Below are positions 5,904 through 38,115 of a stretch of 64,000 nt of DNA, piece after piece. Both the position numbers and the translations under genes were made by a program. How positions within the stretch are numbered: the first letter of the stretch is position 1; every line of letters starts with the position of its first letter. The notes under the pieces were generated by a model, which was not told where the DNA came from, ran no database searches, and saw nothing but the letters and a program-made list of their open reading frames with translations. The DNA is from an uncultured Clostridia bacterium. GTDB lineage: Bacteria; Bacillota; Clostridia; TANB77; CAG-508. The stretch spans positions 15,577 to 79,576 of the forward strand of contig CAKPJC010000001.1 of NCBI GenBank assembly GCA_934162535.1, read 5' to 3'.

Positions 5904-8900
5904 ATGAAATACTTTGAGAAATATCAAAAAAGAAAATTTCATAAAAAAATAGTGAACACAGCTTTTTTATTAATATTCTCAATTATAGCAATAACATCAT
6001 ATTATACAGCTAATTTTTCAAAGGCAAAAGATATAATAGAAGTAAATGTTAATATAAAAGATACAATAATAAGTGAAAGCATAGAAAAATGCAAAGTAAA
6101 TGCGACAGAAGGAATTGATGGAGAATCATTTTATGTGAAATTACCAAAATATATTAATAACAAAAAGGTAATAAAATATTCATATAGCACAGAAAATGCA
6201 GGAGTATCAACAGATACAGAACAAACTGCGGAAAACGAGGTAGAAAAAGCTGTAAAAGCAGAACAAAATGTGCCATTAAACCAAATAGGACCAAATGACA
6301 TATTACCAGAAAGCAAAATATATTTAACATCAACAGAAGTAAAGAAACAAGAATTAACAATATTAGCACATTATGATATAAGAGAACAAAATGGCAAAAA
6401 TTTATATAATCAATATATTGAAGATACAAAAGATAATAACAAAATAACTGTATCAGGCTATATGCCGGAAAATGCGAAACTAATAATACAAGAAGTTGAC
6501 AAAAAAGAAGCTCAAACAACAATAAGACAACAAAGCCAAAGACCCATAATATTGGCAGTAGCATATGACATAAAAATTCAATGTGGAGAAGACATATATG
6601 AGCCATACGAATTTGACCAAAACATAAATGTAAAAATAGAAAAAGAAGATTTAAAAGAAAAAGAGACAAATGTATGGCATATAGATGACAAAAACAAAGT
6701 AGAAAAGTTAGAACAAAAGCCAGAAACAAATGATATAGAATTTGTAACAAATGGATTTTCAATATTTGGACTAGAAGATGTAGAAGCAACAGAATTGGCA
6801 CTTGATGGAATGGCAGATAGTATTTTAACAATAGATGATGCAGAATCAGATAAATACTACTGGCAAGGTCAAAATTACACAGAAGACACAACAGGAGAAA
6901 ACAAAAACATATACACGGAATATGCGAACGTTACAGTAAATTATCATGGATATGGATTAAATGAAGTAGAACCAGAAAAAATAGGATATGTATCATTAAC
7001 AGAAAAATATAATATAGTTACATACAAAAAAACTGCACCAATAGTTAGTGGAAACATATCTATTGAATTAGTAGATAATCCATTTATAGATAGACCAACT
7101 GGATACGGATTTGGTGGATGGACATCACCAGATGGGATAATATCAACAGATACAAAGACAAAAACACAAACAATTACTGCAACAGGTTCAAAAAATGTGA
7201 CACTAAACATATATGCAAACTGGAAAACAGCAACAGTAGTGTACTTGAACTCAGATGGAGGAAATGACAACTTAAATGATGGATTATCTCCTGAAACACC
7301 ATTTGGTTCATGGAGTAGAGCATATGAATATTTATATAACAACTCACAAGATAGAACTGACAGAGAAAACAACATAATAGTATTGACAGGAAACATAGAC
7401 TCAACTATGCATGGCTCAAGGACAGTAACAGGTTCACAAACAATGCTTGCAGATGTTACATATGAATCATCAACAACATTCACATCAGGAGAAAAATATA
7501 TATTAGCAACAGGGACAGGAGAAGGAAGCAATGCACTTGCTGGGATAAATGGAAGCATAGAAAATGCAACATTATCAACAACAGAAAAGCCACCAGCAGG
7601 AGCTGAATGGATAATCCAACAATCTGGAAATGGATATACAATAAAGAATAATGATAATTGGCAGTATTTACACCATTCAAGATATAGTGGATTATATTTT
7701 AGTGATTCGTCATTTACTTGGACATATGATATTAACAATAGAAGATTTTATTATCAGACTACTGGATGGAGAAGAACGACATATTATTTAAGATATAATA
7801 ATGGAACATGGACAACAACAACAAATGCGAATTCAGCACAAAGTTTTTATTTTCTAAAATGTAAAGTAGAAAATGAAAGACCAGGTCCAATTGTAAATAC
7901 AAAATCGGATAATATAGGAAGTAACAACAACTATACATCATCAAGAAATGTTGCCTCAACAATAACAAGTTTATATGGACATGTGGATTATAGAGATAAT
8001 GCGATAATGGACTTAACCCAAAATAATTATAGACATATATATGCATATGCGGATTTACAAATAGAATATTTGAATATAAATGCGACAGGCTACACAAGAG
8101 CATGCGGAACAGACGGAATATCAATAAGCACAAGATATCCAGTGTTTTACGGAAGAGCACACAATTTTAGAATAGGCAGAGGAATAAAACAAGCAGGAAC
8201 AAGCAATGATGCATCAACAGCAGGTGCAGTAATAGGAGGATTTGAATCAGGAACAACAGTAGGAAGTACATATAATTCAAATAATGCATATAAATTAGTA
8301 ATAGAATCAGGAAAATATTCATCAATACTTGCATGGAATATGCGTGATGAAACAGCGAGCTATTATGGAACAGTAAATTGGACTTTAGGAAATGATATAG
8401 ACAGAGTTTTAAAAGAGAATAGTCAATTAAAATCTTATTTTAGAAATACTGTAAATGCAGGAGGAGGAGTAAACGGCAGAGCAAATGTAAGAGATAAAGC
8501 ATATCTGATAAATGTAAAAAGTGGGACTTTTGGAGTGGATGCAGTAACAGATGGATATGGTGATGCATACACATCTGGAATTTATATGGGAGGATATGGA
8601 ACAGGTTCAAGTAGTGGCACAAGAGACATAAGTGATAGATATATGATAGTAGAAGGTGGATTAATATATAACATAAACTGTGGACTAAAGGTAGATAGTG
8701 GAAAGACAGATATATTAACAAAACTTTATGTAAAAGGTGGAGAAATATATAACATTGTCGGTGGAGCAGGATTATCAACTACATACGGTTCAAGAATACA
8801 ACAAATAACAGGAGGAAAAATAAGATATAGTGTAAGTGGTGGTTCAAATGGATATAGTGGGTCAGATGGTGATGGACAAATATCAAATTGCAATACATTG

Positions 8901-11900
8901 GTATATATAGGTGGAAATGCACAAATAGGGGATGAAACACTTGTAGGATATGTAACAGACAATAACACATCAAATGATGACCAAGGAAAATTATATCTAG
9001 TAGAAGCAGGATGCGTTTTAGGAGCAGGAAACGGAAGTAACCCTAATTATACAGCTGGTCAAGTAGACAATTCACATATTATAATTGCAGATGAAGCACA
9101 TATACTAAACAGTGTATATGGTGGTGGAAACTACGGAATAGTAGGTAATAGAAATGGAACAACAGCAAAAGCAACAATAGACATTTTAGGTGGAACGGTT
9201 GATAGAAATGTATATGGGGGCTCAAATAATAGTAGCATATTTGGTTCAACAACAGTAAATGTAAAGGGAGGACATGTTAAAGGGGCTGTATATGGTGGAA
9301 CAAACACATCAGGTACTGTAAGTTCAACAGCTACAGTAAATGTAACTGGTGGAATATTAGGAAATGACACAAATGCAGAAGATAATGAGGCATTATTTGG
9401 TGGAGGATATGGTCAAAGTACAACAGTTTCAGGAAAAGCAACAGTGAATATATTAGACACGTCTTCAAATGTATATATATATGGTAGTGCATATGGAGGA
9501 AGCTCACTTGGTAGAATGAACTCAAATGTTGAAGTAAACATTCAAGATATACCAGGAAACTCAAATATAATATCAATTGTAGGTTCTGTATTTGCAGGAG
9601 GAAAAGGAACAACAACAACATCTGCTACAATTGCAGGAAGTGCAACATTAAATATAGATGGAAGCAATTTACCAGATTGTAGTGTATTTGGTGGAAATGA
9701 TATAAATGGTACAACATCAGGTGCAATAACAGTTAATGTTGGTAGAACATATGAATCAAAACTAAAAAATGCATATGGTGGAGGAAATAAAGCAGGAATA
9801 ACAACAACAACTCCAAGTGTAAGAGTGTATTTACTAGCAAATTCAAATGTAACAAATGCATTTAATGGTGGTAGAGCTGCAAACCTAACATCATCAGGAA
9901 CATCTGATGCAACAAGAGCAATTTACTTACAAGGAGGAAAGGCTAAAAATATATTTGGTGGATCAGACTCATCAGGAACAGTTACAGCAAGTCATGTATA
10001 TATAGAATCAGGTACAGCAGAAAATGTATATGGTGGAAACAATATTGGAGGAACAACAAATACAACATATGTATATGTTACAGGAGGAACAGTAACAAAT
10101 ACATATGGAGGAGGTTACCAAGCGTCAACACCAGCAACAAATGTTAGCCTAACAGGAGGAACAGTAACAAACGGATTTGGTGGAGGAAATGCAGCAGATG
10201 TAACCAATACATCAATATCACTTGCTGGAAGTACTGCAACAAATATATATGGTGGCTCAAATGAAAAAGGCACAGTTTCAAGTACATATGTAACCATAAA
10301 TTCTGGAACAGTAACAAACGTATATGGAGGAAACAACGCAGGTGGAAAATCAGTAAATACAGAAGTAATAGTTAATTCTTCTACAGAAAATGTATATGGA
10401 GGAGGAAATGAGGCTATAACATCTGGAGACACACTTGTAACATTACATAATGCAACAATTACAGGAAGTGCATTTGGAGGAGGAAATGGTGCTGCAGCTA
10501 TAGTTTTAGGAAATAGTGTAATTACAGCCGATGGAACAACAAACATAGCACATGACCTATTTGGTGGAGGAAATGCAGCAGCAACAGGTTCATCATCAAA
10601 AACATCAAAAGTTACAGTTGACATATCAGGAGGAACAATAAGAGGAGATGTTTATGGAGCAGCAAACACATCAGTTGTTACAGGTGAAACACATGTTAAT
10701 ATAGGAACAACAGTTGTTTCAACAACAGGACTAACACAAGGAACAATAGATATTGCAGGAACAGTATTTGGTGGAGGAAAATCAAATACAGCTGGTTCAG
10801 AAGACTACGACTTCTCATTTGAGAGTGTTATAGGAAATACATATATAGACATAAATGCAGAAAATTATGACAATGGAACATATACATATAATATAAGAAA
10901 AAGTATATTTGGAGCAGGAAATGCTGCAACAATGTCAGGAGATGGATACATAAATATAACTAATTACGGAAAAGCTAGTGATATAAAACAAAACATATCA
11001 ATACAAAGAGCAACGACAGTTACAATAGACAATAGTGTAATGTATCTTGAAGGAACAACAGATAGGACAAACGAAATATCGACAGCTGTATATACATTAA
11101 ACAGAATAAAAGATTTAAAAGTAAAAAATAATACAACATTATATTTAGCAAGTGGTGCTAATATACTTGAAAAACTTACAAGTATAGACTCATCAGAATC
11201 AAAAGCAACAGTAACAATTGGTCCAAATGGAGTATTATCAAGAAATGTAGATAATAGAATTTACTTATTACAAGGAAAGAACTTAATTTTAAAAACAGAA
11301 GCTGGTGCACATGGTGAAGTATATGGAATGACATATGTAGGTTTATTCAAAGGAATACTTAATAGAGATACAGGAATATATGGAACAAACTATAATCATG
11401 GAGACACAGTTCCAGCAGATTATGAAGAATTTGCAAGAAATTCATATGTTCAAGGTAAACACTATGATGGGCATGATATAAAAATAGATGGTTTCTATAC
11501 AAACTATGAGGAAGATGGAGTCATTGCAACAAAATATATAGAACCAACACCAGAATCAGCACCATATTATCAATGGATATTAGGTAAAGTTTCAGATGAT
11601 ATATATTATGATGAAATAGAATTAATTGCAACAAAATATGCAACGACATCAACATATGTATTGGACTTAACAGGACTTGATTTCCCAAATATGACAGTAA
11701 ATGTTATAGGATTTGATACATCAGAATTAAGAAATGATGTAATATTAAAAGACAATAGTGAAATACCTAATATTGAAATGGATGCAACAAAAGCAAATAC
11801 AACATTTGGATTAACAATGACAGCAGGAAATACAGGATGGCAAACAAAAGGAACAACAGCATATTACACATCATCAGATAATCAAAATAATGGTACATTT

Positions 11901-13517
11901 AGTGGAACAGAACAATACTTAAGTGATAACTCAACAACAACACCATCATTCAGTTTCTACATGGGTCACTCAAAGAATGTAAGTACAAATGAGGTACTTG
12001 GTTCAGTAACAATACATTTACAAGTATCATATGTATCAGGAGATGAACTTATATTAAGAAATGTATATATACCATTAAGATTATCAACAAACAATACATT
12101 CAAATTAGCAACAGACTTCTATGAAGGAGCTATAACACCAGGTAAAAAATATAGCATGTTCCCAACAACAAATACAAGTATAACAAGTAACAGCTCATTC
12201 TCAGCATATTACTCATTATACTTAGGTGGATACTCACAAGACCAAGAATATTATGATAATTTTGTAGGATATAATCATTATCTTGTATCAAGCTGTGTAT
12301 TACCTGCAAAAACCAAAATAACATTTGTTGATAGGTCAAAAGATGAAATAAAATACTATTATTATATAGTAACAGACCAGGATGAACAAAACGCTAGAAA
12401 AGAATACAAATTCCAAGACTTTACTGCAATGGGAAGTACTGATGAAGGAACAGGAAGGACGGCTGAAAAATACAATAATGACTCAAGTTATTTGAATACA
12501 ACATTAGATATAGTATTAGAGGAATTTATATTCCAAGTGGACTTTGCAGATATTACATTAGCAAATACATTTGCAAATCAGTCACTAACGGTTCAATTAA
12601 GAGATATGTGGGATGATAGCGTTAAATTAAAAGTTAATACAGACCAATATCCAATGCTATTTAACTTATATAGTGACAAAGAAGCTATAAAGAGTGTAGA
12701 TGTAAATTCAAATAAAACATATATTTATATGGGAAATGAATTTAAAGTGGATTTAAAAACAGTATATGAATTCCAAACAGAAAATGCAGATACTGTATAT
12801 GATACAACACACTTTGAAGATCAGCTTGGTGTAAAAATAACTGTATTAGAAGGTAGTACACAATTATCATCAACAGACTTAACAGGTATATATGTAGAGT
12901 ATAATGGAAAAAGATATTATGCAAGAACTGATGGTTCATACAGAATAAAAATAGCAGATGCTGTTTCAAATGTATTAACTGACATGGTATTCTATACAGA
13001 AAATGGTAAACTAGATACGGCAACATATACATTCAAATTTGAGACATTTGGCTCAATAGATGGAGTATATTTCTCTAGCGCAATTGCAACAGATAGTATA
13101 AATATGCAAATAATAAATGCAGATTATGGTTTATCAGCTATATTAGATGATAAATCGGTACTAATAGACAAAGCAACAGGAATAACAAAAAATAATGATA
13201 ATGCTTTAGATTTTACAATAGGATATTCAGCAGAATTTACAAATCCTAAAATATGTGTATCATTATATAGAAGAGATTATTCAAGCATATATAGTTCAAA
13301 ATATAATTTAATAGACTTAGCAAATTATGTTTCAAATACTCTAACACCAACGGCTGTTGAAAAAGAATATTTGGTAACAGATAATCCACAAGCTACACAA
13401 AATTTTGTATTAAGACTAAAAGATAATCTTACAACGGGAACATATAAAATTGTATTCTCACTATATGATGGAGAAAATTACATAGGAAATATAGACAAAA
13501 TGATTATCATTAAATAA
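5904..13517 (+). CDS. giant (2537-aa) secreted or surface protein with an N-terminal signal anchor, a central tract of about 700 aa of about 22-residue beta-helix-type repeats (..V.GG.V.NVYGGxN..) and no LPXTG motif; putative adhesin or matrix fibre protein
   Basis: Uninterrupted 7.6-kb ORF with an SD (AGGAGG) before the ATG and an N-terminal hydrophobic segment. Dozens of degenerate YGG[GSN]N / FGGGN repeat units occur between about aa 980 and 1700. The C-terminus ends ...DKMIIIK with no sortase signal. Confidence 0.8.
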   Translation: MKYFEKYQKRKFHKKIVNTAFLLIFSIIAITSYYTANFSKAKDIIEVNVNIKDTIISESIEKCKVNATEGIDGESFYVKLPKYINNKKVIKYSYSTENAGVSTDTEQTAENEVEKAVKAEQNVPLNQIGPNDILPESKIYLTSTEVKKQELTILAHYDIREQNGKNLYNQYIEDTKDNNKITVSGYMPENAKLIIQEVDKKEAQTTIRQQSQRPIILAVAYDIKIQCGEDIYEPYEFDQNINVKIEKEDLKEKETNVWHIDDKNKVEKLEQKPETNDIEFVTNGFSIFGLEDVEATELALDGMADSILTIDDAESDKYYWQGQNYTEDTTGENKNIYTEYANVTVNYHGYGLNEVEPEKIGYVSLTEKYNIVTYKKTAPIVSGNISIELVDNPFIDRPTGYGFGGWTSPDGIISTDTKTKTQTITATGSKNVTLNIYANWKTATVVYLNSDGGNDNLNDGLSPETPFGSWSRAYEYLYNNSQDRTDRENNIIVLTGNIDSTMHGSRTVTGSQTMLADVTYESSTTFTSGEKYILATGTGEGSNALAGINGSIENATLSTTEKPPAGAEWIIQQSGNGYTIKNNDNWQYLHHSRYSGLYFSDSSFTWTYDINNRRFYYQTTGWRRTTYYLRYNNGTWTTTTNANSAQSFYFLKCKVENERPGPIVNTKSDNIGSNNNYTSSRNVASTITSLYGHVDYRDNAIMDLTQNNYRHIYAYADLQIEYLNINATGYTRACGTDGISISTRYPVFYGRAHNFRIGRGIKQAGTSNDASTAGAVIGGFESGTTVGSTYNSNNAYKLVIESGKYSSILAWNMRDETASYYGTVNWTLGNDIDRVLKENSQLKSYFRNTVNAGGGVNGRANVRDKAYLINVKSGTFGVDAVTDGYGDAYTSGIYMGGYGTGSSSGTRDISDRYMIVEGGLIYNINCGLKVDSGKTDILTKLYVKGGEIYNIVGGAGLSTTYGSRIQQITGGKIRYSVSGGSNGYSGSDGDGQISNCNTLVYIGGNAQIGDETLVGYVTDNNTSNDDQGKLYLVEAGCVLGAGNGSNPNYTAGQVDNSHIIIADEAHILNSVYGGGNYGIVGNRNGTTAKATIDILGGTVDRNVYGGSNNSSIFGSTTVNVKGGHVKGAVYGGTNTSGTVSSTATVNVTGGILGNDTNAEDNEALFGGGYGQSTTVSGKATVNILDTSSNVYIYGSAYGGSSLGRMNSNVEVNIQDIPGNSNIISIVGSVFAGGKGTTTTSATIAGSATLNIDGSNLPDCSVFGGNDINGTTSGAITVNVGRTYESKLKNAYGGGNKAGITTTTPSVRVYLLANSNVTNAFNGGRAANLTSSGTSDATRAIYLQGGKAKNIFGGSDSSGTVTASHVYIESGTAENVYGGNNIGGTTNTTYVYVTGGTVTNTYGGGYQASTPATNVSLTGGTVTNGFGGGNAADVTNTSISLAGSTATNIYGGSNEKGTVSSTYVTINSGTVTNVYGGNNAGGKSVNTEVIVNSSTENVYGGGNEAITSGDTLVTLHNATITGSAFGGGNGAAAIVLGNSVITADGTTNIAHDLFGGGNAAATGSSSKTSKVTVDISGGTIRGDVYGAANTSVVTGETHVNIGTTVVSTTGLTQGTIDIAGTVFGGGKSNTAGSEDYDFSFESVIGNTYIDINAENYDNGTYTYNIRKSIFGAGNAATMSGDGYINITNYGKASDIKQNISIQRATTVTIDNSVMYLEGTTDRTNEISTAVYTLNRIKDLKVKNNTTLYLASGANILEKLTSIDSSESKATVTIGPNGVLSRNVDNRIYLLQGKNLILKTEAGAHGEVYGMTYVGLFKGILNRDTGIYGTNYNHGDTVPADYEEFARNSYVQGKHYDGHDIKIDGFYTNYEEDGVIATKYIEPTPESAPYYQWILGKVSDDIYYDEIELIATKYATTSTYVLDLTGLDFPNMTVNVIGFDTSELRNDVILKDNSEIPNIEMDATKANTTFGLTMTAGNTGWQTKGTTAYYTSSDNQNNGTFSGTEQYLSDNSTTTPSFSFYMGHSKNVSTNEVLGSVTIHLQVSYVSGDELILRNVYIPLRLSTNNTFKLATDFYEGAITPGKKYSMFPTTNTSITSNSSFSAYYSLYLGGYSQDQEYYDNFVGYNHYLVSSCVLPAKTKITFVDRSKDEIKYYYYIVTDQDEQNARKEYKFQDFTAMGSTDEGTGRTAEKYNNDSSYLNTTLDIVLEEFIFQVDFADITLANTFANQSLTVQLRDMWDDSVKLKVNTDQYPMLFNLYSDKEAIKSVDVNSNKTYIYMGNEFKVDLKTVYEFQTENADTVYDTTHFEDQLGVKITVLEGSTQLSSTDLTGIYVEYNGKRYYARTDGSYRIKIADAVSNVLTDMVFYTENGKLDTATYTFKFETFGSIDGVYFSSAIATDSINMQIINADYGLSAILDDKSVLIDKATGITKNNDNALDFTIGYSAEFTNPKICVSLYRRDYSSIYSSKYNLIDLANYVSNTLTPTAVEKEYLVTDNPQATQNFVLRLKDNLTTGTYKIVFSLYDGENYIGNIDKMIIIK

Positions 13518-30346: not shown

Positions 30347-31444
30347 ATGTCAAAAGATTTGAATTATATATACAAAGTTTTAAGAAAGATTTTAAATATA
30401 ATATTAATACTAATAGGTACATACTTAGGAATAAAAATGGCTATTTTTTATATGCCATTTTTAATAGCATTCATAATTTCGTTGATGGTTGAACCAGCGA
30501 TAAAATATTTAATGAAAAAAACGAATATGACAAGAAAAATGTCATCAATAATTATATTTATAATAGTGTTTTCAATAATAATAGGATTAATTATATGGGG
30601 GATAGTTTCATTAATATCAGAATCTACAAATTTATTACAAACATTAAACTTATACATAGACAAAACATATACACAAATACAAGATGTTATAAAAAGGGTA
30701 TCAGTAACAAAAATTAATGTATCAAGTAATATTGTAAATCTTGTACAAGATAGTTCAAAGGAAATACTAATAAGACTTTCATCATGGCTTACAAATTTTT
30801 TAACAAAGTTAATAGAGATGATAACATCGTTGCCAGCAATAGGAATATATACAGTAATAACAATACTATCATTATATTTTATATGTACAGATAAAATATA
30901 TATATTAGATTTAATGGAACATCATATGCCTAAAAAATGGGTAAGAAAAATAGGAACACACATAAGAGAAATAACAAAAAGTTTAGGTGGATATTTAAAA
31001 GCAGAAGCAATACTTATACTTGTATCATTTGTAATATCTGTTATTGGTTTATATATTTTTAAATTCACTGGGATGAATATGAAATATCCATTATTAATAG
31101 CACTTGGAATAGCATTTGTTGATGCATTACCAATTCTTGGTTCAGGATCTGTTATGGTACCTTGGGGAATAATTTCAGCACTAAATGGAGATATACAATT
31201 AGGAATGGCAGTAATAATATTATGGATTATAATGTCAATAGTAAGACAATTTTTAGAACCTAAAATAGTTAGTGGAAAAATAGGAATACACCCAATATTT
31301 ACTTTAGTTGCAATGTATACAGGATTTAAAATTATGGGAGTAATGGGGATGCTTATAGGCCCAATAGTATTAATAATCTTGAAAAATATATTTGCAACAG
31401 TATTAGAACAGGGATTAGCAAAAAGTATTGTTGAAAAAATGTAG
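30347..31444 (+). CDS. AI-2E family transporter (YtvI/PerM-like sporulation integral membrane protein)
   Basis: About 8 TM segments and a conserved C-terminal GPIVLIILKN region typical of AI-2E/UPF0118 proteins. Confidence 0.7.
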   Translation: MSKDLNYIYKVLRKILNIILILIGTYLGIKMAIFYMPFLIAFIISLMVEPAIKYLMKKTNMTRKMSSIIIFIIVFSIIIGLIIWGIVSLISESTNLLQTLNLYIDKTYTQIQDVIKRVSVTKINVSSNIVNLVQDSSKEILIRLSSWLTNFLTKLIEMITSLPAIGIYTVITILSLYFICTDKIYILDLMEHHMPKKWVRKIGTHIREITKSLGGYLKAEAILILVSFVISVIGLYIFKFTGMNMKYPLLIALGIAFVDALPILGSGSVMVPWGIISALNGDIQLGMAVIILWIIMSIVRQFLEPKIVSGKIGIHPIFTLVAMYTGFKIMGVMGMLIGPIVLIILKNIFATVLEQGLAKSIVEKM

Positions 31445-31501
31445 AATAATTATAAAAAAAGCTCATACATTTTAATAGAAAGATGAAATGGAGGGCTTTT
31501 T

Positions 31502-32053
31502 ATGTTTATATATAATTTCAAAATTAGAGGAGGAATTGCACTAAGAATAATATTGATATTATTATCTATTTTTATGCTAGTAGTGTTTTCAATATCAATT
31601 TATAGAATTTTTATAACAAGTGGAAAATTCAAAGTAAAAGATAATATAGGAGAAAAAGAAATTACGAAAATCGAACCACAGAATTATACAAACATATTAC
31701 AAGCAGTACATGATAATCCAGATTCATATATTGGAATGAAAGTTGAATTTACAGGATATATGTATAGACTATTTGATTTTGAAAAAGATGAATTTGTTAT
31801 TGCAAGAGATATGAGCATAAATAATGAGAAAACACAAACGGTTGTTGTTGGATTTTTATGCCAATATAAAGATGCAGATAATTTTGAAGATGGAACATGG
31901 GTAAATTTAATAGGTGTAATAGAAAAAGGAAAATATCATAATCAGGAAATACCAGTACTAAAAGTTACAAATATGGAAAAATCAGAAAGGCCAGATGTGA
32001 CAGTAGTAAATCCACCAGACAATACATATATACAAACAAATGGGATATTTTAA
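31502..32053 (+). CDS. membrane-anchored hypothetical protein (N-terminal TM, about 150-aa extracytoplasmic domain)
   Basis: ORF with an SD and an N-terminal hydrophobic segment. It lies just downstream of the AI-2E transporter gene. Confidence 0.6.
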   Translation: MFIYNFKIRGGIALRIILILLSIFMLVVFSISIYRIFITSGKFKVKDNIGEKEITKIEPQNYTNILQAVHDNPDSYIGMKVEFTGYMYRLFDFEKDEFVIARDMSINNEKTQTVVVGFLCQYKDADNFEDGTWVNLIGVIEKGKYHNQEIPVLKVTNMEKSERPDVTVVNPPDNTYIQTNGIF

Positions 32054-32103
32054 TAGAAAAATCCAAAAAATTAACATAAAATGTGAAAAAAGTCGAAATT
32101 CTA

Positions 32104-32132
32104 TTGATTTACAGGCAAAATCCATGTATAAT
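32104..32132 (+). promoter_or_regulatory. near-consensus sigma-A promoter (TTGATT-17-TATAAT) for the GC-rich beta-CASP gene
   Basis: Hexamers at 32104-32109 and 32127-32132 with a 17-nt spacer. It is followed by the SD AAGGGAG and ATG 32188. Confidence 0.55.
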
Positions 32133-32187
32133 AGTAATGTAGGCAATTACGAATCTTGAAAACAATAAAATTCAAGGGAGTGATTTT

Positions 32188-33708
32188 ATGAAAGCCAGAA
32201 GAGGTTTATCTCTGGACATAACAGCTCTACACAAGGAAGTAACAGGCTCGTGTCTGTACGTCACTGTGAGAGAAGGAGATAACCGGCAAGTAAACTTCTT
32301 GGTAGACTGTGGATTATTCCAGGAGTCCCAGTACGACTATTTGAATGCGGAGCCATTCCCGTTCAATAGCGAAAATGTTGATTTTTGTGTTGTTACACAC
32401 AATCACACAGATCACATTGGGAAACTCCCACAACTCGTTAAAAGTGGGTTCACTGGAAAAATCTACGCTCCAGAATCTACGGCAGAATTATTGCCGTTGG
32501 CAATCCAAAACACATTCGAAATCATGAAGGAGGACTATAAAAAGCAGGGAAAAAAGTTGCTGTACACGGAGGATGATGTTGAAGCTGTTTACAATCAGCT
32601 GGTACCGTGCAAGTATGAAAAGACATTCTATGTTGATTCTAATATCAGCATAACGATATTCGATAATGCACACTTAATTGGTGCAGGGATGATATATGTT
32701 CGAATTTGCGAACAAGGAGAGAAGGAAATTAATCTCCTATTTACGGGAGATTACAAGAAAAAAAACGTATTCAAACAAGTAGCTCGACTGCCCAAGTGGA
32801 TAAGAAAAAAGCCGATGATTATCGTATCTGAGGCAACATATGGAACGACAGACTCCTACGAAGTTGAAAAACACTTTGAAGAGGACGTCGAAAGATTAAC
32901 CAAAGAGCATAAAAACATGCTCATATCTGCGACGGCTCAGGGGCGAGCACAAGAGCTTCTGTATGCCCTGAAGAGGCTTCAAGACAGAGAGAAGCTGAAT
33001 ACGGAAATTCCAATCGGCTTGGACGGAAAGCTGGCACATCAGTATACTCGGATGTATAGAAGTGGTAGGTTGGAAGTTAGCAAAGACAAGATAGACTTCT
33101 TACCAAGGAACTTCTTCTGGTTGAATAAGGACAACCGAGAAGAGTTCTACGCAAACAATAAACAGAAGATTATTGTTTGCACTTCGGGAATGTTGGATCA
33201 TGGTCCAGCACAGCTATATCTTCCGAGAGTACTCGAAAGAACGGACTGGGCAGTGTATGTAACATGCTATTGTCCTGAGACAACATTCGGGTATAGGTTA
33301 CAAAATGCCAAGAACGGTAAGGTAAAAATCCAAGGAAAAGAGGTTCAAGTAAGAGCTCAGGTGCTAAGTACGGCAGAATATTCTGCACACGCCAAGGCTG
33401 ACGAGATCGAACAATTCATTAAAGAGTTCGAGAATCCTTGGCTGGTACTTCTTAATCACGGAGATACAGGAGTGACCAAACAATTCGCGATGCGCCTTGA
33501 ACTCAAGGATGTTGCAAGAAGAGTTGAAATACTTGGGTCTCACACAGTGAGAATTACCAACGGAACTGAAGCAAAGGTTCTTGGTTCCAAACTCAACAAT
33601 GAAGCAAAGCCTAAAATTAAGAAGAATAAAGCAACTAACATGAAGAAAGTAAAAGGAAAGAAGGAGAATCTCAAAAAGAGATTCAGAGGAGCATTTAGGA
33701 GGAAATAA
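32188..33708 (+). CDS. metallo-beta-lactamase-fold beta-CASP family hydrolase (RNase J/CPSF73-like nuclease fold) with a Lys-rich C-terminal tail; anomalously GC-rich and foreign codon usage
   Basis: HNHTDH (motif 2), the SEATYG acidic motif, EYSAHA (His motif B) and LNHGD (His motif C) in the correct order. By eye the GC is about 45% with CTG, CCG, CGG and GTC codons. It has its own promoter and terminator. Confidence 0.75.
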   Translation: MKARRGLSLDITALHKEVTGSCLYVTVREGDNRQVNFLVDCGLFQESQYDYLNAEPFPFNSENVDFCVVTHNHTDHIGKLPQLVKSGFTGKIYAPESTAELLPLAIQNTFEIMKEDYKKQGKKLLYTEDDVEAVYNQLVPCKYEKTFYVDSNISITIFDNAHLIGAGMIYVRICEQGEKEINLLFTGDYKKKNVFKQVARLPKWIRKKPMIIVSEATYGTTDSYEVEKHFEEDVERLTKEHKNMLISATAQGRAQELLYALKRLQDREKLNTEIPIGLDGKLAHQYTRMYRSGRLEVSKDKIDFLPRNFFWLNKDNREEFYANNKQKIIVCTSGMLDHGPAQLYLPRVLERTDWAVYVTCYCPETTFGYRLQNAKNGKVKIQGKEVQVRAQVLSTAEYSAHAKADEIEQFIKEFENPWLVLLNHGDTGVTKQFAMRLELKDVARRVEILGSHTVRITNGTEAKVLGSKLNNEAKPKIKKNKATNMKKVKGKKENLKKRFRGAFRRK

Positions 33709-33722
33709 AACATAAAATCATA

Positions 33723-33750
33723 AAAGGAGACCCTAGTTGGGTCTCCTTTT
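33723..33750 (+). terminator. rho-independent terminator (AAAGGAGACCC-TAGTT-GGGTCTCCTTT followed by T2)
   Basis: Perfect 11-bp GC-containing stem immediately after the stop at 33706-33708. Confidence 0.7.
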
Positions 33751-33927
33751 CATAAGGATTTTTAATAGAATATTTAAAAAAATTTCCGGTTTTTACTTAA
33801 CAAAAAGAATAAAAAAATAATATAAGAATAAAAAATTGAATTTTATGTAAAAATTTTCAAAAAAACTTGAAAAAACTAGTTAATCATGTTATATTAGAAT
33901 GGTATCTATGAAAGGAAGGATAGAAAG

Positions 33928-36678
33928 ATGGGAGTAATTAACAAAATATTTAAGAGCTACAGCGAAAAAGAAGTAAAGAGAGTAATGCCAATAGTAGAAA
34001 AAATAAATGCATTAGAAGATGAGATGACAAAACTTAGTGATGAAGAACTAAAAAATAAAACAGATAAATTAAAAAATGAATTAAAAGAAGGGAAAACTCT
34101 TGATGACATATTACCAGAAGCATTTGCAGTTGTAAGAGAAGCTTCAAAAAGAGTATTAGGAATGAGACACTTTGATGTACAATTAATAGGTGGAATAATA
34201 TTACACCAAGGTAGAATTGCCGAAATGAAAACAGGTGAAGGAAAAACATTAGTAGCAACACTACCAGTATATCTAAATGCACTTACAGGAAAAGGAGTGC
34301 ATGTAATAACAGTAAATGATTACCTAGCCAAAAGAGATAGTGAATGGATGGGAAAACTTTACAAATTCTTAGGGCTATCAGTAGGACTTGCAATAGCAGG
34401 AATGAACCCAAAAGAAAAACAAGAAGCATATGCATGTGATATAACATATGGAACAAACAATGAATTTGGATTTGATTACCTAAGAGATAACATGGTAATA
34501 TACGAGAACCAATTAGTACAAAGAGGACTAAATTATGCAATTGTCGATGAGATAGACAGTATATTAATAGATGAAGCAAGAACACCACTTATAATATCAG
34601 GTAGAGCAAACCAATCATCAGACCTTTACAAAAAAGCAAATGACTTTGTAAAAAGACTAACACCAAGAGTAATAGTAGAAGAAGATGTAAAAGATGAAGT
34701 ACAAGCAGAAGACAACGAAAAATATGATTATATAGTTGACTTAAAAGCAAAATCAGCATCATTAACACTAAAAGGAATAAAAAAAGCAGAAGAATTCTTC
34801 AGACTAGAAAACTTCAATGATATAGAAAACTCAACATTAGTACACCATGTAAATCAAGCATTGAGAGCACATGGAGTTATGAAGAAAGACATAGACTACA
34901 TAGTAAAAGATGGAGAAGTACTAATAGTTGATGAATTTACAGGACGTATAATGTATGGAAGAAGATACAACAATGGATTGCATCAAGCAATAGAAGCAAA
35001 AGAAGGAGTTAAAATTGCAGATGAATCAAAAACATTGGCAACAATAACATTCCAGAACTATTTCAGAATGTATGATAAATTATCAGGTATGACAGGTACT
35101 GCTATGACAGAAGAAGCTGAATTTGAAGAGATATACAATTTAGACGTTATATCAATACCAACAAACAGACCAATGATAAGAAAAGATGAACATGATGTAA
35201 TATACAAAAATGAAAATGCAAAATTTAGAGCTATTGTTGAAAGCATAAAAGAAAGTCATAAAAAGGGACAACCAGTACTAGTTGGTACAGTATCAATAGA
35301 AAAATCTGAAAAATTAAGTGCTATACTAAAAAAAGAAGGAATTAAACATGAAGTATTAAATGCCAAATTCCATGAAAAAGAAGCTGAAATAATAGCACAA
35401 GCCGGAAAATTTGGAGCAGTAACAATAGCAACAAACATGGCAGGTCGTGGTACAGATATTATGCTTGGAGGAAACAGTGAATATCTTGCAAAACAAGAAA
35501 TGAGAAGAAACAAAGTTCCAGAAAACCTAATAGAAGAATCAAATACTTATTATGAAACAGATGACCAACAAATATTAAGAGCAAGAGAAGAATTCAAAAA
35601 ATTAGAAGAAAAATATTCTAAAGAAATAAAAGAAGAAAAAGAAAAAGTAATTGAAGCTGGAGGACTAAAAATAATTGGTACAGAAAGACATGAATCAAGA
35701 AGAATTGATAATCAGCTTCGTGGACGTAGTGGACGTCAAGGAGATCCAGGAGAATCTAAATTCTATATAGGGCTAGATGATGACTTAATGAAAATATTTG
35801 GTGGAGACATGATTACAAAGGTATATAATTCAATAGGAATGGATGAAAATGTACCAATACAAAATAGAATGATAAGTAATGCAGTAGAATCTGCACAAAA
35901 GAAAGTTGAAGGAAGAAACTTCAGCATTAGAAAAAATGTATTAAAATATGATGATGTAATGAATGTCCAAAGAGAAGTAATATACAAACAAAGAAGACAA
36001 GTTCTTGATGGAGAGAACCTAAGCGAAAGCATTAAGAAAATGATAGAATCATTATCAGAAGAAGTTGTATTAACATATGCTAGCAATGATGGAGAAGAAA
36101 TTAATGTTGAATCATTAGATACAGACATAAGAAACATATTCGGAATTGAAATGGCAGAATTTATAAAAGAAAATTCAAAAGATTCAAATGCTATAATTTC
36201 AAAATTACAAGAACTAGCATTAAACAAATATGCAGAAAAAGAAACTGAAATAGGTAGTGAATATCTAAGAGAACTTGAAAGAGTTGTTATGCTAAAAGTT
36301 GTTGACCAAAAATGGATGGATCATATAGACAGCATGGACGAACTAAAAAATGGTATAGGACTTCGTGCATATGGACAACAAGATCCAGTTGTTAAGTACA
36401 GAACAGAAGGAATGGAAATGTTTGAAGAAATGGTACTTGATATTAAACATGATATTGTTCAAATTCTTATGAATCTTCGTAAACAAGAAGATGTTAAGAG
36501 AGAGGAAACAGCTAAAATAACAGGTGCAGCTTTACAAGCAATAAATAGCGTAGATTCTGGAGAACAAATAAAATCAGATGTAAACAGAACAGTTGTAAAT
36601 CAAGAGCCAAAAATTGGAAGAAACGACCCATGTCCATGTGGAAGTGGTAAGAAGTATAAGAATTGCTGTGGGAAGTAA
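33928..36678 (+). CDS. secA: preprotein translocase ATPase SecA
   Basis: DEAD-like motor motifs ([31 protein letters not shown]) and the C-terminal zinc motif [14 protein letters not shown], 916 aa. Confidence 0.95.
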
Positions 36679-36775
36679 GAAAAAATAAGAACATTTCTAA
36701 AGTTCAAAAATTATCAAGAGGGTTCAGATTTCATAACTTATCCACAAAATATTAAGAATTTGTAGCAAAATAAAG

Positions 36776-36810
36776 GTGTCAACAAGAAATAATTTGTTGA
36801 CACTTTTCAT
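36776..36810 (+). terminator. rho-independent terminator after secA (GTGTCAAC-12 nt loop-GTTGACAC followed by T4)
   Basis: Perfect 8-bp stem followed by TTTTCATCTTT. Confidence 0.55.
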
Positions 36811-36832
36811 CTTTAGGAAGGAATGAGAAAAA

Positions 36833-37327
36833 ATGAAAGAAGAAAAAATAAACCTATGGAATGAAATAATAGAAAAATTAAGTGAAAAAAAACTAACAAT
36901 ATCAACAATGGAAAGTTGTACTGGAGGTGGAATAGCAAATGAAATAACAAATATTTCTGGAGCATCAATGATATTCAAAGAGGCATATGTTACATATAGC
37001 AATGAGGCGAAAATAAAGCAAGGAGTAGCAAAAGAAAAAATAGAAAAATACACTGTATATAGTCCTGAAGTTGCAAAAGAAATGGCAAGAGCAGTAAAAC
37101 AAAATACAAAGTCAGCTATATCAATTGGAGTAACAGGTCAACTAGGAAGAATAGATCCAAACAATCCAGTTGATAAACTAAATACGGTATGGTATGCAAT
37201 TCTTAATAACAAAAATGAATATATGGTTCAAGAAGTACATGTACCAGATGCGAAAAGAGAAAAACAAAAAGAGATAGTAATAGAGGACATAGCGAAAAAA
37301 CTTTTAAAAAACCTAGAAAGCGAATAA
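36833..37327 (+). CDS. CinA C-terminal domain protein (nicotinamide-nucleotide amidohydrolase PncC-like)
   Basis: TMESCTGGGIA, GAS.IFKEAYVTYSNEAK and SIGVTG blocks typical of the CinA C-terminal domain. Confidence 0.8.
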   Translation: MKEEKINLWNEIIEKLSEKKLTISTMESCTGGGIANEITNISGASMIFKEAYVTYSNEAKIKQGVAKEKIEKYTVYSPEVAKEMARAVKQNTKSAISIGVTGQLGRIDPNNPVDKLNTVWYAILNNKNEYMVQEVHVPDAKREKQKEIVIEDIAKKLLKNLESE

Positions 37328-37356
37328 AAGAATTATTATAATATTAGGAGGTAAAT

Positions 37357-38115
37357 ATGAAACAAAATATTTATGATGACGAAAAATTCTTTGAAAAATA
37401 TGACGAACTCAGAATAAATCAAAAAGGTTTAAATGCGAATGACCTAATTGAAATACCAGCATTTAGAGCAATAATGCCAGATGTAAAAAATAAGAGATTA
37501 CTAGATTTAGGATGTGGCTATGGAGAAAATGATAAATATTACAAAGAACTAGGTGCAAAAAGTGTGTTAGGGGTAGATATTTCTACACATATGATAGAAA
37601 TGGCTAATAAAAATAATAAAATGAAGGATGTTGAATATAAAGTAATGGCGATGGAAGATATATATCAGATTAATGAAAAATTTGATGTAGTAATATCATC
37701 ATTAGCATTTCATTATATAAAAGACTATAACAAATTAATATCAGATATTTATAAATTAATGAATAATGGAGGATATTTAATATTTTCACAAGAACATCCA
37801 TTTACAACATGTATAAAATATACGGAAAATGTAAAAAAGGGGCATACAATAATAGACAATAAATATTTTGGTTTATTTTCAGATTACAACAGACCAGGTT
37901 TAAGAACGAAAGAATGGTTTGAAGAGGAAGTAATAAAATATCATAGAACATTCACTGAAATTATTAATATACTTATTAATAATGGTTTTACAATAGAAAA
38001 AATTGAAGAACCTATTGCGAGCCAAGAAGCGGTAGCAAAAAATCCGAAATATATAAATCAACTAGACAGACCGTTTTTCTTAATAGTAAAAGCAAAGAAG
38101 AATGCTATAAAGTAA
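37357..38115 (+). CDS. class I SAM-dependent methyltransferase
   Basis: Motif I LDLGCGYGEN, a post-I acidic residue and motif II DVVISSLAFHY. Confidence 0.75.
   Translation: MKQNIYDDEKFFEKYDELRINQKGLNANDLIEIPAFRAIMPDVKNKRLLDLGCGYGENDKYYKELGAKSVLGVDISTHMIEMANKNNKMKDVEYKVMAMEDIYQINEKFDVVISSLAFHYIKDYNKLISDIYKLMNNGGYLIFSQEHPFTTCIKYTENVKKGHTIIDNKYFGLFSDYNRPGLRTKEWFEEEVIKYHRTFTEIINILINNGFTIEKIEEPIASQEAVAKNPKYINQLDRPFFLIVKAKKNAIK

Follow-up and report, generated by a model that had tools for sequence, protein, structure and literature searches.

A probable beta-CASP ribonuclease of the CPSF73 branch on an exchanged cassette upstream of secA in uncultured gut Clostridia

The DNA analyzed here is a 64,000-nt stretch from an uncultured Clostridia bacterium (contig CAKPJC010000001.1 of assembly GCA_934162535.1, positions 15,577-79,576, forward strand), which we refer to as the window, and its subject is a gene upstream of secA that encodes a beta-CASP metallo-hydrolase of 506 amino acids (aa). 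Taken together, our data suggest that the gene product is probably an active ribonuclease (RNase) of the CPSF73 branch, encoded on an exchanged cassette, and employed in accessory RNA turnover or quality control. The coding sequence covers 32188..33708 on the + strand, stop codon included, as established by the list of open reading frames (ORFs), Pfam matches, a homologue alignment, and AlphaFold2 (AF2) modeling with Foldseek searches. The host is a gut species with a GC content of 28%, and the gene and its neighbors occur in human-gut metagenomes. The kind of enzyme is known, and what has not been described is its context, namely the exchangeable cassette on which the gene lies, the ClpX paralogue as an optional partner, the basic tail, and an excess of GC at third codon positions (GC3) throughout the family.

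The catalytic core, residues 1-460 (32188..33567, + strand), was delimited by Pfam, invariant alignment columns, AF2, and Foldseek, and it consists of a metallo-beta-lactamase domain, an inserted beta-CASP domain (residues 254-371 by Pfam), and an RMMBL segment (residues 386-438). All three Pfam families exceed their cutoffs, with 32.2 bits for Lactamase_B (cutoff 22.7), 58.6 bits for Beta-Casp (PF10996, cutoff 27.7, with the whole model 1-120 covered), and 35.6 bits for RMMBL (PF07521, cutoff 21.6). A preliminary description of this DNA had recognized a full set of beta-CASP motifs, and all of them could be located, HNHTDH at residues 71-76, SEATYG at 214-219, SAH at 399-401, and NHGD at 423-426, each on invariant columns in an alignment of 60 homologues. 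In the same alignment, the residues of metallo-beta-lactamase motifs 1-4 (D40, H71/H73/D75/H76, H162, and D188) are invariant or nearly so, and those of the beta-CASP motifs A, B, and C (E215, H401, and H424) are all invariant. The AF2 model has a mean predicted local distance difference test (pLDDT) score of 88.5 and a predicted template modeling (pTM) score of 0.87, and the block means are mostly above 85 across most of residues 21-460. The remainder of the protein, residues 461-506 (33568..33705, + strand; composition and pLDDT), is a C-terminal tail rich in Lys and Arg, as had been noticed before. Its last 46 residues comprise 15 K, 4 R, and 3 D/E, with an isoelectric point of 11.3, and residues 471-506, the sole long low-confidence part of the model, are predicted to be disordered (pLDDT below 50). 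Basic tails that differ in sequence are found in the members of about 500 aa that belong to the window's clade, and the 471-aa and 483-489-aa subtypes of the family have no such tail.

The best sequence matches in the PDB are aCPSF1, IntS11, TTHA0252, and Cas14, with E-values of 1e-33 to 1e-22 for aCPSF1/CPSF73/IntS11. The best Foldseek matches are TTHA0252 (TM score 0.86-0.87, target-normalised), aCPSF1/FttA, and CPSF73; the top 50 all belong to TTHA0252, aCPSF1/FttA, CPSF73/CPSF100, Ysh1, IntS11, or Cas14, and no RNase J chain is found within these 50. Judged by its sequence and its modeled fold, the protein is a predicted member of the CPSF73/aCPSF1/IntS11/TTHA0252 branch, a stand-alone bacterial CPSF-like enzyme to which a basic tail has been added. 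The matching NCBIfam models, which are Cas14, aCPSF1, and RNase J, all score below their own cutoffs. The stand-alone CPSF-like RNase TTHA0252 of Thermus thermophilus (431 aa) has the same two-domain architecture as the window protein, neither of the two carries KH or other N-terminal domains, and all motifs, including the histidine at motif C, are common to both. However, the two proteins are only about 24% identical, and the disordered Lys/Arg tail of about 45 residues is an addition of the window protein. Unlike TTHA0252, the window protein is encoded on an exchangeable cassette, and the copies of its relatives are often paired with a ClpX paralogue. The enzymes aCPSF1/FttA, CPSF73, and IntS11 contain a catalytic core with an RMMBL segment as the window protein does, but the latter lacks the KH domains of aCPSF1 as well as the C-terminal domains through which dimers with CPSF100 or IntS9 are built; it reaches 192 bits on the aCPSF1 model TIGR03675, compared with a cutoff of 580, and matches only the catalytic model positions 183-617. 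Cas14 of type VII CRISPR-Cas is the best NCBIfam match (211 bits, residues 16-444) and has a similar fold, but the cutoff of its model NF045584 is 800, far above this score, and the C-terminal model positions 430-612 remain unmatched. There is no CRISPR array among the tandem repeats of the window and no cas-type gene among the genes called around the 506-aa gene, and an identity as Cas14 or as part of a type VII CRISPR system could be discarded on the basis of the sub-threshold score and these two absences. With RNase J (J1/J2 of Firmicutes), the window protein has the superfamily and the metal-binding motifs in common; it scores only 24 bits on TIGR00649 (cutoff 400), mainly in the N-terminal metallo-beta-lactamase part (residues 61-250), and 19.9 bits on the RnjA model (cutoff 820). 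The C-terminal domain of RNase J is missing, and the disordered basic tail is found in its place. The NCBIfam scores and the ranking by fold exclude an RNase J identity. The earlier view of an enzyme with an RNase J/CPSF73/Artemis fold thus stands as far as a complete beta-CASP enzyme of the CPSF73 branch is concerned, and the absence of the RNase J C-terminal domain had been noted correctly, but the protein is no RNase J-type enzyme.

The history of the gene differs from that of its flanks. The nearest relative is the locus L020, whose SecA is 95% identical to that of the window. In a sliding comparison with this locus, the nucleotide identity amounts to 80-95% up to position 32053 and again from about 33860, and to 45-75% between these positions, with values of about 0 in an AT-rich stretch that is specific to the window (33763-33852). 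The number of synonymous substitutions per synonymous site (dS) is 0.42-0.81 in secA and in the DUF1980_C, permease, and CBS genes, whereas the synonymous sites of the beta-CASP gene are saturated (proportion of differing synonymous sites, pS, 0.87). This saturation inside the cassette, in comparison with the flanks, implies that the two alleles separated long before the two genomes did, and at least one allele must therefore have been placed by recombination through the conserved flanks. The data indicate that the window allele arrived by replacement and not by vertical descent from an ancestor common with L020. As an evolutionary unit, the cassette has a length of about 1.8 kb (32054..33860, no strand assigned), beginning just past the DUF1980_C stop codon and ending shortly ahead of the native promoter of secA; its borders are defined by the steps in identity and dS at 32054 and about 33860, and by related loci in which this interval is empty (L017 and L037). 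The trees of the beta-CASP protein and SecA agree for several sister pairs, and they disagree for a subtype without tail, whose members (L022, L026, and L043) lie scattered across the SecA tree. For the pairs L032/L036 and L103/L031, in which inheritance looks vertical, the ratio of nonsynonymous to synonymous rates (dN/dS) is 0.10-0.15, so that purifying selection acts on the beta-CASP protein, which is thus no decaying remnant.

The slot that holds the cassette extends from the DUF1980_C gene to secA, and we compared its contents in about 30 related species whose SecA proteins are 84-95% identical to that of the window. The slot is empty in L017 and L037, with only 130-211 nt between the flanking genes, and contains only a basic protein of 112-116 aa in L016, L034, and L039. 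The beta-CASP gene is alone in the window and in L020, L021, L022, and L024; it is followed by a ClpX-like ATPase gene in L012, L018, L026, L031, L032, L035, L036, and L038, and the ATPase gene comes first in L007, L045, and L103. A PIN-PhoH2 gene lies in the slot of L027-L030 (about 10650-12130) and adjoins secA in L023 (16184-17632), L025 (16185-17633), and L033 (13840-15276), which gives seven species with such a gene. A multi-gene insert of about 7 kb, which we read, with the reserve due to a reading of sequences, as a polysaccharide-type operon, is present in L023, L025, and L043 in addition to another of these occupants, and a further occupant is a 494-aa protein of no recognized kind. 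In about 12 of 32 related species, the beta-CASP gene is missing from the slot, and five of these also have no PhoH2 gene there. Most of the inspected cassettes carry a similar promoter-like sequence and a terminator. PIN-PhoH2 (YlaK/PhoH2 type) resembles the beta-CASP modules in that it uses the same slot upstream of secA and likewise brings together RNA nuclease and P-loop ATPase, but fold and chemistry are unrelated, and PIN-PhoH2 is one fused protein rather than the product of two genes. In other lineages, four loci also have a PhoH2-like gene immediately 3' of the beta-CASP gene. The small basic protein (L016:10653-11003, L034:2984-3322, and L039:7623-7961; 112-116 aa) has no family match, and its gene has its own promoter-like sequence and terminator. 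In L024, an insert of about 580 nt (about 12290-12860) lies between the terminator of the beta-CASP gene and the secA promoter; with its long terminal inverted repeats (gaacctctttcggtgtctgccataaccc...), it looks like a miniature inverted-repeat element.

Within the species of the window, the gene appears to be fixed. In 22 contigs that were read for this species, the 506-aa gene (504 aa in one case) is located 3' of an identical DUF1980_C gene in all 10 of the 10 places shown, and a slot without the gene was not found among these contigs. Across many samples, the gene is identical or nearly so. Species-representative genomes with the neighboring DUF1980_C gene are all metagenome-assembled genomes of uncultured Clostridia, one of which is a closed chromosome of 1.55 Mb.

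The ATPase encoded beside the beta-CASP genes of relatives is a ClpX paralogue (L012:9535-10629, L007:6660-7814, L096:7461-8624, and L098:7464-8618), with scores of 208-230 bits on ClpX models, below the respective cutoffs, and with E. coli ClpX as the best match in the PDB (E about 1e-49). Neither the zinc-finger domain nor the RKH loop is present; both Walker motifs (A and B) and the tyrosine of the pore loop are retained, as is an (I/L)GF tripeptide in the place of the ClpP-docking loop. The pair of beta-CASP gene and ClpX paralogue is also found in two unrelated neighborhoods of other Clostridia. Among 49 metagenome loci that could be assessed, i.e., those with enough flank on at least one side, the paralogue adjoins the beta-CASP gene in 15, and it was found, within the DNA fetched, in none of the 34 loci at which both sides could be read over about 1.1 kb or more. 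Obligate pairing was therefore rejected, as only 15 of the 49 loci show the pair and solo genes are common. The window itself contains only the genuine clpX, 8 kb upstream of the 506-aa gene. A pair of a beta-CASP and a ClpX-like protein is not described in the available literature.

The gene stands out by its codon usage, and the anomaly of GC-rich, non-native codons that had been described before is statistically well founded: the GC3 value is 0.440, compared with a mean of 0.139 for the 51 other genes of the window (standard deviation 0.026, maximum 0.199; z=11.5), and an index resembling the codon adaptation index (CAI), built on the same 51 genes, gives z=-5.5. The only other GC3 outlier in the window is the ORF 27522..28298(-). 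With the members of the family (loci L007-L204) clustered at 80% protein identity, and with the median of the flanking ORFs as the reference for each gene, an excess of GC3 was found in 33 of 34 lineages with AT-rich hosts (median +0.11; sign test p=4e-9), and in 20 of them no flanking gene reaches the value of the beta-CASP gene. Homologues of about 30% identity in GC-normal genomes show no such excess. The ClpX paralogue is also raised in GC3, the PIN-PhoH2 genes of the slot tend to be so, with values up to 0.44, and the alleles of the window and L020 both have values of 0.41-0.44 despite the synonymous saturation between them. No homologue with more than 66% identity is present among 5.8 billion proteins, no GC-richer donor is visible, and the two nearest homologues (65% and 60%) occupy the same slot in sister species. 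In a test for amelioration, polarised synonymous counts gave a ratio of 0.57 for the beta-CASP gene, no different from those of SecA (0.51) and DUF1980 (0.68); changes from GC to AT were thus not in excess of those in the flanks, in a comparison of low power and with a parsimony bias in all genes. The excess tends to be higher in solo genes (0.16) than in paired genes (0.08), a trend (p=0.06) that is not phylogeny-corrected. An unsampled, GC-richer reservoir may repeatedly feed these loci, or selection may keep GC3 high, either because this limits the translation of a harmful nuclease or because it protects the gene's own message in an AU-rich transcriptome. With an excess throughout the family and no visible donor, "foreign codons" are a weak sign of recent import. 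Of the horizontal acquisition that had been proposed, the exchange as such is supported, in the form of allele replacement at a variable slot, while the step from foreign codons to a recent import is weakened. The protein is also not an RNase J- or Y-type paralogue that all relatives keep at this position.

The cassette carries its own signals. A sigma-70-type promoter, TTGATT-17-TATAAT, lies at 32104..32132 (+ strand) and has 10 of 12 matches, and an intrinsic terminator lies at 33722..33750 (+ strand), a fully complementary (100%), GC-rich 12-bp hairpin with a 5-nt loop, AAAAGGAGACCC / GGGTCTCCTTTT, and a T-run. The near-consensus promoter and the GC-rich terminator had been recognized in the preliminary description, and they lie exactly at the limits of the segment it had outlined. 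As regards the promoter, eight promoter-like sites were found in the AT-rich region where 9.9 were expected, i.e., not above chance; a similar TTGATTT...TATAAT sequence is present upstream of most other cassettes inspected and absent from the empty site L017. The scan tool assigned the palindrome of the terminator to the minus strand, and a nearly identical terminator hairpin is found 3' of the beta-CASP gene of L020. In the 5' untranslated region (UTR), a weak hairpin, CTTGAA/TTCAAG (32155-32160 and 32171-32176), recognized from the sequence, touches the Shine-Dalgarno (SD) sequence GGGAG (32176-32180), the feature as a whole covering 32155..32180 (+ strand). Hairpins that abut the SD sequence, with stems that differ by lineage, occur in the 5' UTRs of L020, L021, L012, L032, L036, L096, and L098. 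A conserved SD-sequestering hairpin was suggestive by eye and was discarded after RNAalifold found no consensus for the 5' hairpins of the cassettes and their enrichment over shuffled sequences was not significant (Wilcoxon p=0.07).

At the borders of the cassette, there is an imperfect direct repeat, whose left copy, TTTTAATAGAAAAATCCAAAAAATT, spans the stop codon of the DUF1980_C gene (32048..32072, + strand) and whose right copy (33760..33784, + strand) is located directly 3' of the terminator and opens the AT-rich stretch of about 100 nt that is missing in L020. The copies are identical at 21 of 25 positions and are spaced by 1712 nt. The repeat was not seen at the other loci inspected, and it could be a chance occurrence in AT-rich DNA. 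The right conserved flank begins with the native secA promoter, TTGAAA-17-TG-TATATT (33867..33895, + strand), which is conserved in all relatives, empty slots included. Upstream, the neighbors are a CBS gene, a permease gene of the AI-2E/YtvI type, and the DUF1980_C gene, and downstream are secA and then cinA, which bears out the location that had been given, between genes of a ytvI neighborhood and secA. No integrase, transposase, or tRNA gene is present in or beside the cassette, and Rfam detects no known RNA in 26000-38000. The spot downstream of secA, which is occupied by cinA in the window, looks like a strain-variable integration site; phage-type integrase genes were seen directly 3' of secA in a strain of the window's species (L106:10426-10552) and in a related species (L100-L102, about 10620-11880).

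The mechanism that we propose is as follows. By analogy with the CPSF73/aCPSF1/TTHA0252 branch, the protein would act as a two-metal ribonuclease that cuts single-stranded RNA endonucleolytically and/or trims it in the 5'-to-3' direction, with catalysis likely carried out by the HxHxDH motif, a His, an Asp, the Glu of motif A, the His of motif B, and the His of motif C. The disordered Lys/Arg tail may add a non-specific affinity for RNA or ribosomes. The gene would be carried by a self-contained cassette of about 1.8 kb, equipped with a promoter, a weak hairpin close to the SD sequence, and a terminator, in a variable slot upstream of secA, into which the window allele was presumably brought by recombination in the conserved flanks. 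The most likely cellular role would be accessory RNA turnover or quality control, in line with PIN-PhoH2, another RNA nuclease-ATPase, as the alternative occupant of the slot. The rare-codon spelling, to which the CAI-like index (z=-5.5) points, may, perhaps together with the weakly supported 5' hairpin, hold down the amount of a nuclease that could be harmful.

Several points weigh against this reading. In this family, the motif C histidine and the RMMBL segment imply specificity for RNA, and for the window protein, the specificity for RNA and not DNA is predicted from this histidine, the RMMBL match, and the similarity in fold only. The role in RNA turnover is suggested by neighbors in other lineages and not by those in the window genome: outside of the window's clade, members of 471 aa without tail, from other Clostridia, are found beside recurrent neighbors that, read from N-terminal sequences, look like genes for fructose-bisphosphate aldolase, peroxiredoxin, lysyl-tRNA synthetase (LysRS), RecJ, SmpB, and PhoH2-like proteins. 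The gene content of this genome was read within the 64-kb window, and RNase J, RNase Y, PhoH2, or the ClpX paralogue may be encoded elsewhere in it. The enrichment of the 5' hairpins does not differ significantly from shuffles, and a donor of the cassette is not visible. Finally, the presence and absence of the gene, the replacement of its alleles, and the extreme divergence, with 30-66% identity of the beta-CASP proteins where SecA is 86-99% identical, are also the pattern of conflict genes, i.e., of genes involved in defence.

The main rival explanation therefore is that the protein is an anti-phage or anti-plasmid effector of an undescribed type, in which a beta-CASP RNase and a ClpX-paralogue ATPase, here the nuclease only, would degrade RNA on infection, and we regard this as possible but rather unlikely. 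In its favor are the gain, loss, and replacement at the slot and the inverted gene orders among the related species sampled, an allele divergence far above that of the flanks, the fact that the closest curated NCBIfam model is Cas14 (211 bits), the atypical composition, and the ClpX paralogue that adjoins the gene in unrelated contexts and in 15 of the 49 metagenome loci. However, PADLOC-DB 2.0 yielded weak partial matches only: for the nuclease, LmuA reached 30 bits over 70 residues (17-86) and RTasMBL 16 bits, with nothing full-length; for the ClpX-like partner, the best match was a partial one to DolB with 34 bits; and PIN-PhoH2 and the small proteins of the slot gave weak partial matches only. 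In phage records and IMG/VR, the relatives are at most 32% identical, and full-length matches at most 29%; on plasmids, the relatives are at most 30% identical and annotated as 'MBL fold metallo-hydrolase'. A phage or plasmid origin could be dismissed on account of these distant relatives. Among the related species, the slot contains no recognizable restriction, abortive-infection, or signaling system, its other occupants being PIN-PhoH2, the basic 112-aa protein, the insert of about 7 kb, and the 494-aa protein. Outside of the window's clade, the neighbors look housekeeping-like, and all contigs read for the species carry the gene, unlike typical defence genes, which vary between strains. The available literature connects beta-CASP proteins with immunity only for type VII CRISPR-Cas, and it contains no report of a beta-CASP gene that acts in defence together with a ClpX-like gene. 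The weak PADLOC matches, the distant viral and plasmid relatives, the housekeeping-like neighbors, and the contents of the slot thus favor accessory RNA metabolism over immunity. The preliminary description had considered an anti-phage or anti-plasmid effector plausible and had suggested a search of defence databases and a comparison of strains; the former gave no convincing match for the protein, the ClpX-like partner, or the cargo of the slot, the latter showed the gene on every contig read for the species, and close relatives in phage records and IMG/VR are missing. With the neighbors outside of the clade also taken into account, such an effector is not supported.

A broader version of the conflict idea would regard the beta-CASP cassettes, with or without the ClpX paralogue and its ClpP-docking (I/L)GF loop, as undescribed RNA-targeting conflict modules of AT-rich gut Clostridia that are swapped by recombination and for which PIN-PhoH2 is interchangeable. 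The GC-rich codons would then not be a scar of import but would be maintained, as they throttle the synthesis of a toxic nuclease or shield its mRNA from AU-directed cleavage. We consider this combination of assumptions doubtful.

Alternatively, the gene could be an old resident, a fast-evolving housekeeping paralogue whose GC-rich codons are kept by selection and which has not been transferred horizontally. The GC3 excess in 33 of the 34 AT-rich-host lineages (p=4e-9) would agree with this, as would the lack of a GC-richer donor and of any homologue above 66% identity, the two nearest homologues in the same slot of sister species, the many sister pairs that are congruent between the beta-CASP and SecA trees, and the polarised counts without GC-to-AT excess over the flanks, which are of low power. 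Nevertheless, the borders of the cassette show a step in dS from 0.4-0.8 to saturation, and a faster evolution of the protein cannot produce such a step. In addition, about 12 of the 32 related species lack the gene in the slot, five of them having neither beta-CASP nor PhoH2 there, some species have the beta-CASP and ATPase genes in the opposite order, and the subtype without tail is incongruent on the SecA tree, which makes a purely resident history improbable.

A mobile-element remnant had been suggested as well. A gene left over from a decaying mobile element or prophage, with no present function, might be indicated by the single-gene island of atypical composition, the imperfect 25-nt direct repeat at both borders, and the integrases downstream of secA in some strains and relatives, but this explanation is largely refuted and very improbable in view of the full-length ORF with all catalytic residues, the purifying selection in relatives (dN/dS 0.10-0.15), the identical or nearly identical gene in many samples and on every contig read, its own promoter and terminator, and the lack of close viral homologues and of any integrase, transposase, or tRNA in or beside the cassette.

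Two further observations were made in the window. The second GC3 outlier ('island 1', 27522..28298, - strand) is an ORFan of 258 aa with a GC3 of 0.421 (z=10.7) and without any match in Pfam, NCBIfam, or PADLOC; only two clusters among the 5.8 billion proteins match it (98% and 70% identity), and no contig of the species lacks it. In L020, a protein of 27% identity is encoded at its place, so that 27522..28298 marks another hypervariable slot rich in GC3, at a distance of 4 kb from the first. A very long ORF of 2537 aa (5904..13517, + strand) has a raised GC content at codon positions 1 and 2.

In summary, taken by itself, the gene would be one more uncharacterised bacterial CPSF73-like ribonuclease, judging from its sequence and modeled structure. 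Its surroundings expose a small and sharply bounded recombination slot upstream of secA in uncultured gut Clostridia with small genomes, where the exchange involves RNA nucleases, alone or together with an ATPase partner, and leaves the core genes nearly unchanged. If the pairing with the ClpX paralogue is functional, it would constitute a new partnership of a nuclease and an unfoldase. The GC3 excess in 33 of 34 lineages in the absence of a donor is a warning against the use of "foreign codons" as proof of recent transfer, and it raises the question of whether selection shapes the codons of nuclease genes where the genome is very AT-rich.

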